This document shows positions 23,552 through 25,774 of a stretch of DNA of 32,000 bases, in pieces. The position numbers and the translations under genes are program-made. The stretch is from positions 765,776 through 797,775 of the forward strand of contig NC_001263.1 in NCBI RefSeq assembly GCF_000008565.1. The letters run 5' to 3'. Every line of letters starts with the position of its first letter. Positions within the stretch are counted from its first letter, which is position 1. The DNA comes from Deinococcus radiodurans R1 = ATCC 13939 = DSM 20539 (GTDB lineage: Bacteria; Deinococcota; Deinococci; Deinococcales; Deinococcaceae). The notes beneath the pieces were generated by a model. The model was not told the DNA's origin and made no database searches. It saw nothing but the letters and a program-made list of their open reading frames with translations.

Positions 23552-25774
23552 ATGAATAAACGACACGCCCTCCTCTTGACTGCCGTGCTGGGCATGGCCA
23601 CCGCTTATGCTCAAACTGCACCGACCACCACGACCGTCAATACGTTGCAGACGGTTTACCGTGACCCTAGTCTGACCTCTGCTCCAATTACAGCAAATGT
23701 AGGTAAATACGTCGGCCCCCTGTCTACTTTCTTGGCAAGCATCGCCAAATCGGCGGGCTACGAAGTGGTTTTCAATTTCAATATTGATGCGCTGGCCCTC
23801 ATCAACGGTGAAATTGTTTTTGGAAATAGTACCGCTTCAGTGACGACTTCCTATGCAACTCCTTTAGGTAGGCCCCAGGAATTACCAGCCAAACCTGTAG
23901 TCCACAATTTCTCGAACGCTCCTTTCAACGAAGCTTGGCCTTTGCTTATGGATGTTTATGAGTTGGATTATCAACTAGTTAAAGTTGGTAGTGCAAATGT
24001 CATACGAATTGGTCAAAGGCCTAAGCAGTTGGCTCTGCCCCTAAAATTTATTTCGGCAGAGAGTGCCTTAACTGCCATTGAGAAATTTTTTGGTGAAGAA
24101 AAGTTTGAGACCGTGATAAGTTTGGATAGCAATAATAAACCTTTTCAAACTACTCGGCCAACAGGTAAATTTGGATTGCCTAATAGCATAAAAGTAATCC
24201 CCGATTCCAGCAATAAGCGTTTGATTATTGGTTCCAATAGTGAGGATGGAATAAGAATACGTAGTTTCGTAGAAACAATAGATGTACAATCCTCTGGTAA
24301 AGTAATATCTACTGATTCCATAAGCGAAATATATATTGTAAGAGGCCAGAAAGAAAGCGTATTACAGTTTTTGAGAGATAGTTTTCCGGAATTAATAGTT
24401 ACCGATTATGCATCTGGAGGCCTTGCTATTGAAGGCCCACGAACAAGTGTTAACAGGGCTATAATCTTGCTTGGACAAGTAGACCGTGCACCTGAAATTC
24501 CTATTGTGCAGCGCATCTACACCGTGCGCGGCCAGGCCGCCGACATCACGGCGCTGCTCGCTGCCCAGTACCCTACCCTGCGCGTGACCCCGGTGGGGCA
24601 GACCGGCCAACTGGTGCTCAACGGCGCTCAGGCCCAGCTCGACACGGCGCTCGCCCTGCTCGAACAGGTGGACCGCCCCGCCCCGGTGGCCGAGTCCCGT
24701 ACCGTTCAGCGCGTCTTCCAGCTCGTCAACGCCAGCGCTGAGGAAGTCAAGGCGACCCTGGAAGGCACCCTGGCGCGTGACCTGACCGCCGACAGCAATA
24801 ACGACGTGCTGCCCAACGTGCCCGTCACCGCCACCGACGCCAACGGCAACACGACCGTGGTGAGCGTGCCCAACGCGCTCGGCAAGACGGCGAACCAGGG
24901 CACGGCGAATGCTCAGGCTCAGACTGCCCAGACTCCGGCCAACACCCAGCAGGCGACCCTGATCGCCGACAAGCGCACCAACAGCCTGATCGTGCGCGGC
25001 ACGCCCGAACAGGTGGCGCAGGTGGCCGAGCTGGTGCCGCAGCTCGATCAGGTGGTGCCGCAGATCAACGTGCAGGTGCGGATTCAGGAGGTCAACGAGC
25101 GAGCGCTGCAATCGCTGGGCCTCAACTGGCGGGCGACCTTCGGTGGCTTCAACGTGGCGGTCTCGGGCGGCACCGGGCTGGCGGCCACCTTCAACCCCAC
25201 CCAGAGCTTCCTCGGTTTCAACATTTTCCCGACCCTCACGGCGCTCGAAACCCAGGGCCTGACCCGGCGCGTGTACGACGGCAACGTGACCATGCAAAGC
25301 GGCCAGCGCTCGCTGAGTGCCACGGGCGGCGCCCAGAACGCTTCGAGCGGCGCGGCGGCCAGCGTCAAGAGTGGGGGCCGACTGGAAATCAACATCCCCT
25401 CGGCGGCGGGCAACATCGTGCGGCAGATCGATTACGGTCTCAACCTCGATTTCTTCAGCCCGCAGGTGGCGCCCGACGGCACCATCACCCTGCGTATTCG
25501 CGGTCAGGTCAACCAGCCGGCAACGGCGATCACCGCCGACAGCCTGCCCAACCTCATCGACTTCACCAACAGCGAAGCGCAAAGCACCATCACCTTCAAG
25601 AACGGCCAGACCATCCTGATGAGCGGCCTGCTCGGCAGCACCGAGACCACCAACCGCAGCGGCGTGCCCTTCCTGAGCAGCCTGCCCGGTGTGGGCGCGG
25701 CCTTCGGGGAAAAACGCACCGAGAAGACCCAGTCGCAACTGCTCGTCATCATCACCGGCACCGTCGTCAAATAA
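23552..25774 (+). CDS. pilQ: Type IV pilus/competence secretin PilQ
   Basis: Signal peptide MNKRHALLLTAVLGMATAYA, then repeated N-domains ending in 'LL.QVDR.P'. The secretin C-domain includes 'ATLIADKRTNSLIVRGTPEQ', 'PQINVQVRIQEVNERALQSLG' and 'GVPFLSSLPGVGAAFG..LLVIITGTVV'. SD aaggtga precedes the ATG. Confidence 0.93.
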   Translation: MNKRHALLLTAVLGMATAYAQTAPTTTTVNTLQTVYRDPSLTSAPITANVGKYVGPLSTFLASIAKSAGYEVVFNFNIDALALINGEIVFGNSTASVTTSYATPLGRPQELPAKPVVHNFSNAPFNEAWPLLMDVYELDYQLVKVGSANVIRIGQRPKQLALPLKFISAESALTAIEKFFGEEKFETVISLDSNNKPFQTTRPTGKFGLPNSIKVIPDSSNKRLIIGSNSEDGIRIRSFVETIDVQSSGKVISTDSISEIYIVRGQKESVLQFLRDSFPELIVTDYASGGLAIEGPRTSVNRAIILLGQVDRAPEIPIVQRIYTVRGQAADITALLAAQYPTLRVTPVGQTGQLVLNGAQAQLDTALALLEQVDRPAPVAESRTVQRVFQLVNASAEEVKATLEGTLARDLTADSNNDVLPNVPVTATDANGNTTVVSVPNALGKTANQGTANAQAQTAQTPANTQQATLIADKRTNSLIVRGTPEQVAQVAELVPQLDQVVPQINVQVRIQEVNERALQSLGLNWRATFGGFNVAVSGGTGLAATFNPTQSFLGFNIFPTLTALETQGLTRRVYDGNVTMQSGQRSLSATGGAQNASSGAAASVKSGGRLEINIPSAAGNIVRQIDYGLNLDFFSPQVAPDGTITLRIRGQVNQPATAITADSLPNLIDFTNSEAQSTITFKNGQTILMSGLLGSTETTNRSGVPFLSSLPGVGAAFGEKRTEKTQSQLLVIITGTVVK

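Follow-up and report, generated by a model that had tools for sequence, protein, structure and literature searches.

The pilQ gene (DR_0774) of Deinococcus radiodurans R1 encodes the secretin of the DNA-uptake and secretion channel across the cell envelope and is located in a 32,000-nt stretch of the chromosome (NC_001263.1, positions 765,776 to 797,775), which is termed the window in the following and to which coordinates refer unless stated otherwise. Nucleotides 23606-24505, an in-frame part of pilQ encoding the flange, N0 and N1 domains, very probably represent one allele of an exchangeable cassette, in which an AT-rich module of a class named A is placed on an N2-N3-barrel part of native base composition. 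The compositional jump inside the gene marks the junction of two DNA segments with separate histories, and pilQ can be grouped with the mosaic genes of competent bacteria.

An AT-rich block with exact breakpoints in pilQ

The 740-codon open reading frame (ORF) of pilQ is uninterrupted and contains an AT-rich block in frame. Such a block had been described in an earlier note on this DNA, and all peptides quoted there lie in the ORF. The guanine plus cytosine (GC) content of the block amounts to 0.418, with 0.48 at first and 0.35 at third codon positions (GC1 and GC3, respectively); in the N0-N1 part GC3 is 0.26. The remaining 900-nt windows of the 32 kb have a mean GC content of 0.677 (standard deviation 0.034, minimum 0.598), which places the block at z = -7.6. 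Outside the cassette, the lowest GC content was found at 2375-3275 (59.8%). Sliding GC and GC3 profiles, a check proposed in the earlier note, revealed a strong drop of GC3. In 30-codon windows GC3 is 0.63 at the gene start, falls to 0.17-0.30 and returns over about ten codons to 0.73-0.93 at codons 311-321, compared to 0.79-0.89 in seven neighbouring genes. GC in 120-nt windows is 0.33-0.41 between 23880 and 24480 and 0.67-0.73 from 24480 on. A value of 35-40% GC, as noted earlier, applies to 23880-24480, but not to the 5' third of the block, the flange, which has about 46% GC. The 3' edge at 24505/24506 is abrupt (GC3 0.25 in N1 and 0.90 in N2) and coincides with the breakpoint described below; at the 5' edge the change is gradual, from 0.72 to about 0.5. 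The limits first proposed, 23640-24510, were essentially exact at the 3' end and about 35 nt short at the 5' end, where the true start is 23606.

The amino-acid content of the block is shifted as well (0.27 Phe, Tyr, Met, Ile, Asn and Lys, or FYMINK, versus a family median of 0.15), together with codon positions 1 and 2. The relative synonymous codon usage (RSCU) of the block correlates negatively with that of native genes (-0.39). N1 and N2, adjacent units of contrasting GC content, are indeed paralogous, as had been suspected: they share 37% identity (E = 8e-11) and both match Secretin_N. That amino-acid constraint does not suffice to explain the contrast also held, because GC3 is hardest affected and the paralogous units differ at 0.25 versus 0.90.

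Comparison with relatives placed both limits of the block to the base. Cassette classes were named A, A', A'', B and C, and ten alleles of the clade (cluster representatives, given P-numbers), whose barrels are 95-100% identical to that of R1, were included. A 7.7-kb radiodurans-like metagenome scaffold (L023), whose PilQ protein is P0040, carries a B-class cassette. Three flank stretches of this scaffold (pilN-pilO-dr0773 and N2-to-aroK) are 95.2%, 92.2% and 97.5% identical to the window. In a base-by-base alignment the homology ends at 23605/23606 and resumes at 24505/24506, with the first base of codon 319. The interior is an unrelated 723-nt module, compared to 900 nt in R1, which has a GC3 of 0.67-0.93 and encodes a different flange and N0 without N1. 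Both breakpoints were found at the same positions with the D. wulumuqiensis locus L026. In every allele comparison the left breakpoint was located at pilQ +53, +55 or +72. The right breakpoint corresponds to codon 318/319 and to the N1/N2 boundary of the solved structure (PDB 8CO1), in agreement with the earlier statement that the AT-rich edge lies at a domain boundary.

Three D. wulumuqiensis loci gave the same picture within one species. L024 carries an AT-rich A' cassette, L026 a GC-rich B cassette and L028, from complete genome CP031158.1, an AT-rich C cassette. The flanks of this trio are 96.2-97.5% identical, and no mutual DNA homology was detected from pilQ +55/+72 to +918/+973. Near-identical flanks around an unalignable interior, as seen in L023 and in the trio, are the sharp breakpoints of a mosaic gene and directly demonstrate the recombinational mosaic of N-terminal periplasmic modules that had been proposed from the R1 sequence. 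Among the ten clade alleles, protein identity to R1 ranges from 37 to 100% in the flange, 17 to 100% in N0, 24 to 100% in N2 and 22 to 100% in the N3 loop. Clade relatives with at least 95% protein identity to R1 in the outer-membrane part share 17-62% identity with it in N0. Homology of the cassette to other A-class alleles was detected in the flange only (72-78% at the DNA level), and flange divergence does not track flank divergence between genomes.

The upstream gene dr0773 does not co-vary with the cassette. In the trio, the upstream flank is about 97% identical up to pilQ +55/+72 whatever cassette follows, so the cassettes appear interchangeable on one inner-membrane platform. The earlier idea that module swapping reflects altered envelope docking finds no support here, as this upstream partner stays constant.

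Two further comparisons concern the cassettes themselves. L004 and L029, a third species pair with flanks of about 96% identity, have an unalignable stretch of their own from +727 to about +1200, and their same-class flange-N0 (L004:4055-4727 and L029:6055-6727) differs at 110 of 672 nt (16%). In this pair, flange-N0 diverges several-fold faster than its surroundings even within one allele class. The C-class flange of L028 (6010-6385) is 88% identical to that of a Deinococcus metagenome-assembled genome (L003:1-377), with flanks at 80-81% and homology stopping at +385. This suggests that parts of cassettes may move between species and may be mosaic themselves.

The block could in principle be an assembly chimera or a low-GC contaminant inserted in silico into pilQ, and the compositional contrast itself, but nothing more, would speak for this. 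The 900 nt occur without a single difference in ten independent assemblies, which were made in different laboratories and with different pipelines, namely the NCBI complete genome CP031500.1, one metagenome of the Joint Genome Institute (JGI), GCA_003516665.1 (GenBank) and seven Logan assemblies of Sequence Read Archive (SRA) data. The reading frame is intact, and the protein purified from R1 cells was solved by cryo-electron microscopy (cryo-EM) over residues 34-740. The ten identical assemblies and the solved protein exclude an assembly chimera in R1, and the probability of an artefact is negligible.

A second alternative is that no swap took place, and that a vertically inherited gene acquired its composition under amino-acid constraint or by local hypermutation restricted to R1. 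In most Deinococcus species examined, GC3 is indeed somewhat lowered in the N-terminal half of pilQ. However, the most affected position is GC3, which is largely free of amino-acid constraint, the homologous N1 and N2 lie at the two extremes given above, and unrelated cassettes are found between near-identical flanks. We regard vertical inheritance without exchange as very improbable.

A second exchange site and the assembly of the R1 allele

Allelic variation in pilQ is not confined to the N-terminal cassette. The N3 loop (~24773-24961), a 59-residue stretch unmodelled in 8CO1, occurs in three unalignable types in conspecific D. wulumuqiensis, with flanks of 95-97.6% identity (loci L031:1501-3531, L032:1501-3504 and L026:6001-8040). 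GC3 is 75-95% in loop1, 30-40% in loop2 and 15-60% in loop3, and R1 carries the GC-native loop1. The combinations A' with loop1, A' with loop2, B with loop1, B with loop2 and B with loop3 were observed. The loop type assorts independently of the N-terminal class, which requires recombination between the two sites. The four combinations of A' or B with loop1 or loop2 constitute the incongruent segments of a mosaic gene, as judged by identity comparisons.

The D. radiodurans / D. wulumuqiensis clade has several deeply divergent versions of the N-terminal module. Each version is bounded by a conserved anchor on either side: the codons of the signal peptide on the left, and the beginning of the following N domain on the right. 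Modules would be swapped whole and in frame by homologous recombination within these anchors. Natural transformation, which this very channel mediates, is the likely vehicle of such swaps, since the species is competent and integration is RecA-dependent. Deletion of dr0774 abolishes natural transformation, and chromosomal integration of transforming DNA needs RecA (PMC7314969).

In R1, an A-class flange-N0-N1 would have recombined into a genome whose N2-N3-barrel is of the B-associated kind; one crossover would lie within the signal-peptide codons and the other where N2 starts. From N2 onward, the R1 protein is 98-100% identical to P0040, and N2 itself is 100% identical. The B cassettes of L023 and L026 align contiguously at 86.4% identity, with flanks of 84.8-91.4%. 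As the divergence of the B cassette matches that of the flanks, B looks resident, and A would be the incoming class. The flange of R1 is 73.4% identical to the A' flange of the sister species, while flanks are 84-91% identical.

The junction at codon 318/319 provides R1 with one more periplasmic ring than is found in its closest relatives. R1 alone of the ten clade alleles combines an AT-rich N1 with a GC-native N2, and its protein has 740 amino acids compared to 667-700 in the others. N1 is not present in the other nine alleles (including P0040, P0041, P0036, P0002 and P0046). The closest unit to N1 is the AT-rich N domain of an A' allele (44%, versus 40% to N2). An out-of-register crossover between the starts of N2 and N3 was rejected as origin of the extra ring, these starts sharing just ~6-8 nt. 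An in-register crossover at the start of N2 is simpler because A-class alleles with both N1 and N2 exist elsewhere (D. caeni). A mobile element or genomic island was likewise rejected: mobile genes were not found, and the 900 nt of the block lie in frame within a single ORF. No silent copies of the B, C, A', loop2 or loop3 cassettes were found outside pilQ within the 32-kb window.

Three observations weigh against an exchanged cassette in R1. The junctions carry neither repeats nor mobile-element genes (short chance repeats were found only at other places); this fits homologous recombination but gives no positive signature of it. A donor was not found: the nearest relative is 76% identical in protein over flange and N0, without DNA homology in N0-N1. 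Finally, the sole radiodurans-like genome with a different cassette is L023, which is a metagenome scaffold and no isolate. Its cassette copies no D. wulumuqiensis sequence compared, and this dissimilarity would argue against a simple chimera.

Base composition of the cassettes and the search for a donor

An exhaustive HMMER search among 1.84 billion representatives retrieved 35 homologues of the block, all of them Deinococcus-type and with 51% identity at best. The best DNA match to the cassette, 78%, covers the flange only. A plasmid or phage as source was not supported: tblastn searches of 72,556 plasmid and 50,697 phage records and a scan of IMG/VR gave no match. A scan of genome contigs returned Deinococcus loci only, plus three distant secretins. 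A first scan of JGI metagenomes for the cassette gave no match; a second scan with an A-class profile yielded six Deinococcus-like loci, which encode distant Deinococcus-type secretins in GC-rich contigs, none of the six in a low-GC background. A protein search with a sub-region of 291 amino acids found one fragment only, apparently because the word index is of limited sensitivity and not for a biological reason. Of the earlier proposal of recombination with a low-GC donor, the exchange stands, while the donor itself was not found and all homologues are Deinococcus-type secretins.

A low-GC pil locus of the Deinococcus type does exist. L030 (L030:1-10073, on a 26-kb Logan contig of SRR33677519) contains pilM-pilN-pilO-x-pilQ at 43.7% GC, with a GC3 of 13-60% in every pil gene. 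Its PilM is 83% identical to that of R1, compared to 88% for PilM of D. phoenicis. No close relatives of its PilQ were found in a database of 5.8 billion proteins. L030 looks like an undescribed low-GC (~44%) Deinococcus lineage, as far as this contig can tell. Codon usage of the R1 cassette correlates with L030 (RSCU correlation +0.43).

Why the cassettes are AT-rich can be read in two ways, which we rate about equally and each somewhat short of an even chance. On the one hand, AT-rich cassettes may have evolved in low-GC Deinococcus relatives with the same secretin architecture and have been imported, with the donor composition not yet erased. The existence of L030, whose GC content is close to the 41.8% of the cassette, is in line with such a pool, as are the codon-usage correlation with L030 and not with native genes, and the shift of codon positions 1 and 2 and of amino-acid content. 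Laboratory mutation-accumulation lines of D. radiodurans have a GC-biased mutation spectrum (AT bias 0.49, PMC6330053), so that local mutation should not produce AT-richness. Import from another species is also consistent with the C-class flange, which is 88% identical between two species with flanks at 80%.

Several results are difficult to reconcile with import. The flange of L030 is B-like and 31% identical to the R1 cassette, and L030 itself has no close database relatives. The 35 homologues are all Deinococcus-type, with 51% identity at best; plasmid, phage and viral-contig relatives were not found, and the metagenome relatives are distant and in GC-rich contigs. The A-class is AT-depressed in at least seven GC-rich lineages, with alleles 70-79% apart in DNA; recent import would have to have happened many times independently, from a pool of which hardly anything has been sampled. 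A polarised comparison of the flange in L004 and L029 gave no amelioration trend (12 AT>GC versus 14 GC>AT changes).

On the other hand, the cassettes may be old, fast-evolving alleles, too divergent to recombine internally with the majority allele, which escape GC-biased conversion or weak codon selection and relax to an AT-biased equilibrium; the earlier note had likewise considered very unusual pressure as an alternative to a donor. In several species, both cassette sites have one (majority) allele of native GC content, B or loop1, and only AT-rich alternates to it. The GC3 minimum of the R1 cassette lies in the part that differs most between alleles (0.26 in N0-N1 versus 0.42-0.44 in the flange). 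Lineage-private substitutions in the sequences flanking the cassette (~19755-21650 and 24707-27450, compared with L023, L024, L026 and L028 and polarised by parsimony) comprise 104 GC>AT and 25 AT>GC changes; for R1 alone the counts are 48 and 6. From this flank spectrum we derive a ratio of about 2 per site and an equilibrium at a GC content of about 0.33, a value near the GC3 of the cassette. In L004 and L029 the flange is 16% diverged, compared to about 3.5% in the flanks, with balanced AT/GC changes (12 versus 14). The A-class allele of D. phoenicis is GC-rich, and the class is thus not intrinsically AT-rich.

Relaxation to a local equilibrium has difficulties of its own. The mutation-accumulation data are GC-biased in R1 (PMC6330053), and an excess of GC>AT among recent differences is also expected from slightly deleterious polymorphism. 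Polarisation by parsimony is only a rough guide, and the numbers of changes are small. GC-biased conversion is not known to operate in Deinococcus, and codon selection, if it is the keeper of GC3, should act alike on all alleles of this abundant protein. The GC3 of R1 N0-N1 (0.26) also lies below the estimated equilibrium.

As a third explanation, AT-richness might be selected at the nucleotide level, for instance if rare codons cause pauses that aid export or folding of the N-terminal modules, if the block contains an internal promoter, or if a nucleoid protein binds to it. The block uses non-native codons although it belongs to one of the most abundant envelope proteins, and the AT-rich state recurs in several species. 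But B-class alleles encode like modules at a GC3 of 0.67-1.0 in conspecific or sister genomes, so AT-richness is not needed for function. The number of promoter- or terminator-like sites in the block (2) was not in excess of expectation (1.2±1.2), and no Rfam match and no notable repeats were found in it. Selection at the nucleotide level is therefore considered unlikely.

The pil locus, selection on the secretin and comparable systems

The coordinates of the genes and of the parts of pilQ are compiled in Table 1. The gene order is pilM-pilN-pilO-dr0773-pilQ, followed by aroC, aroK and aroB. An identical 740-residue PilQ product is encoded on CP031500.1. Chain Q1 of PDB entry 8CO1, named 'Probable type IV piliation system protein DR_0774', aligns with PilQ of R1 from residue 1 to residue 740 in both (E = 0, 1580 bits). 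The protein belongs to the secretin superfamily by its C-terminal barrel (PF00263, 99.6 bits versus a cut-off of 27.5) and by its N rings (PF03958 over the whole protein).

Table 1. Genes of the pil locus and parts of pilQ in the window.
Feature	Coordinates	Strand	Remarks
pilM (dr0770)	19104..20279	+	first gene of the pilMNOPQ operon (operon assignment PMC7314969); PF11104 PilM_2, E = 1.3e-56
pilN (dr0771)	20272..20988	+	PF18222 PilN_bio_d, E = 1.9e-35
pilO (dr0772)	20985..21644	+	PF10741 (E = 3.3e-26) and PF04350 PilO
dr0773	21641..23548	+	635-residue low-complexity protein; no Pfam match; called pilP in PMC7314969
pilQ / DR_0774 secretin	23552..25774	+	740 residues; Secretin_N E = 4.5e-31, Secretin E = 1.9e-28
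Left homology anchor, signal-peptide codons 1-18	23552..23605	+	conserved between alleles; identical to L023 through 23605, unalignable beyond
AT-rich allelic cassette	23606..24505	+	codons 19-318, 900 nt, in frame; limits from comparison with relatives; not homologous in DNA to B- or C-class cassettes of close relatives
Flange domain and mature N-terminus	23606..24016	+	flange residues 34-155 in 8CO1; GC 0.46, GC3 0.42; limits from PMC10828601
N0 ring	24017..24316	+	about residues 156-255; contributes to the 'N-gate'; Secretin_N E = 1.4e-07; GC 0.373, GC3 0.30
N1 ring, extra ring	24317..24505	+	about residues 256-318; weak Secretin_N match, E = 0.022; GC 0.397, GC3 0.25; 37% identical to N2
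N2 ring, right homology anchor	24506..24706	+	residues 319-385; Secretin_N E = 3.1e-07; GC 0.726, GC3 0.90; identity of L023 and L026 resumes exactly at 24506
N3 domain with second cassette site	24707..25060	+	Secretin_N E = 2.9e-16; loop ~24773-24961 (residues 408-470)
Outer-membrane secretin barrel	25061..25771	+	residues 504-740; 95-100% protein identity among ten clade alleles; limits from PMC10828601

The 8CO1 secretin, purified from R1, is a pentadecamer solved by cryo-EM at ~2 Å, and its residues were divided into an inner-membrane-related flange domain (34-155), a periplasmic part with N0-N3 (156-503) and an outer-membrane barrel (504-740) (PMC10828601). Farci et al. (2023) labelled DR_0774 as GspD of a type II secretion system (T2SS), with which it shares the pentadecameric secretin and the N0-N3 rings (PMC10828601). 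Unlike GspD, DR_0774 belongs to a pilMNOP-pilQ operon, and transformation depends on it; its best sequence matches among solved structures, after itself, are PilQ proteins. Its position downstream of pilM-pilN-pilO(-pilP) and its requirement for DNA uptake are those of a PilQ-type secretin. No Pfam match was obtained in DR_0774 for the AMIN domain, which is typical of proteobacterial PilQ; residues 19-155 match no Pfam family, and the flange domain occupies the typical AMIN position. The naming as T2SS or type IV pilus component has no bearing on the cassette finding.

Two further variable stretches lie next to pilQ. The Pro/Thr/Ala-rich middle of dr0773 (~21850-23040) has almost no DNA homology to D. 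wulumuqiensis, with both ends homologous, and full-length calls of this gene differ in length among relatives (449-668 amino acids). In the pilQ-aroC spacer, 101 nt (25857-25957) are missing from a JGI metagenome contig (L012) that is otherwise identical to R1 across pilQ and spacer; no second copy of this stretch was found elsewhere in the 32-kb window.

The modules of the cassette (flange and N0, which form the 'N-gate', and N1) are the channel end nearest the inner membrane and are not exposed at the cell surface. For this reason direct escape from phages that use PilQ as receptor, as considered in the earlier note, is not the obvious reading. Agents traversing the channel or docking inside it are a possible selective cause. 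The deep polymorphism at two sites of one gene in uniform flanks suggests balancing or diversifying selection, as far as such comparisons can indicate. More specifically, though only tentatively and with rather low probability, a cross-species multi-allelic polymorphism of flange-N0-N1 and N3 loop might be maintained by frequency-dependent selection by phage, tailocins or parasitic DNA, its minority alleles remaining AT-rich in genomes of 67% GC as they are out of reach of GC-biased conversion. If this were true, nature would have provided, in this one gene, an experiment on the determinants of GC content in bacteria, and the R1 structure with its 'novel' flange and second gate would be one of several interchangeable architectures.

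The flange and the N-terminal second gate, highlighted as new in the DR_0774 structure, are encoded by a strain-variable cassette. What is concluded from R1 on function and structure may not hold for other strains, even of the same species. A natural swap panel is provided by nearly isogenic backgrounds that carry cassettes A, B and C and loops 1-3; it could serve questions on the N-gate and on ring number with respect to DNA uptake, envelope integrity and phage susceptibility. At this locus, the same domains are encoded by alleles of native GC content and by AT-rich ones, next to each other in the same genomes. The natural spectrum of the locus, with the 104 versus 25 changes given above, is opposed to the GC-biased laboratory spectrum (PMC6330053), and import versus local equilibrium is directly testable.

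A literature search retrieved no description of this pilQ mosaic, whereas mosaics of Neisseria pilQ did turn up. Like these, the R1 gene has an in-frame intragenic replacement from a diverged source, with sharp breakpoints in conserved sequence and in a transformable host. Other mosaics that arose by transformation are known from penA and porB of Neisseria and from the pbp genes of pneumococci. In contrast to the Neisseria-type mosaics, the exchange unit in Deinococcus pilQ follows domain boundaries exactly (flange-N0-N1 and N3 loop). At least three to five classes exist at 17-40% protein identity, while mosaics of competent bacteria involve homeologues that are 5-20% diverged. Moreover, the alternates deviate strongly towards AT, the polymorphism is found again in several species, and no antibiotic or other phenotype is known.

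Unalignable low-GC alleles in conserved flanks also occur at O-antigen, capsule and pilin or flagellin glycosylation loci, where they are classically read as low-GC import. Those loci are multi-gene clusters for exposed surface structures, whereas the pilQ cassette is intragenic and encodes periplasmic rings by the inner membrane. PilQ of Thermus thermophilus has a stack of N rings across a wide periplasm, is encoded in a pilMNO-x-pilQ operon and is needed for DNA uptake. Compared to Thermus-type secretins, the flange appears restricted to secretins of the Deinococcus type (35 homologues among 1.84 billion representatives), in which ring number varies even among close relatives. With Neisseria pilE/pilS the system shares a variable module of a type IV pilus component that is exchanged by recombination, but the variation in pilQ is seen between genomes and not within one, and the 32-kb window holds no silent copies. 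What distinguishes Deinococcus pilQ from these systems are domain-exact cassettes, divergent classes that cross species, an independent second site, systematically AT-rich alternates and the bearing of all this on the structure 8CO1.

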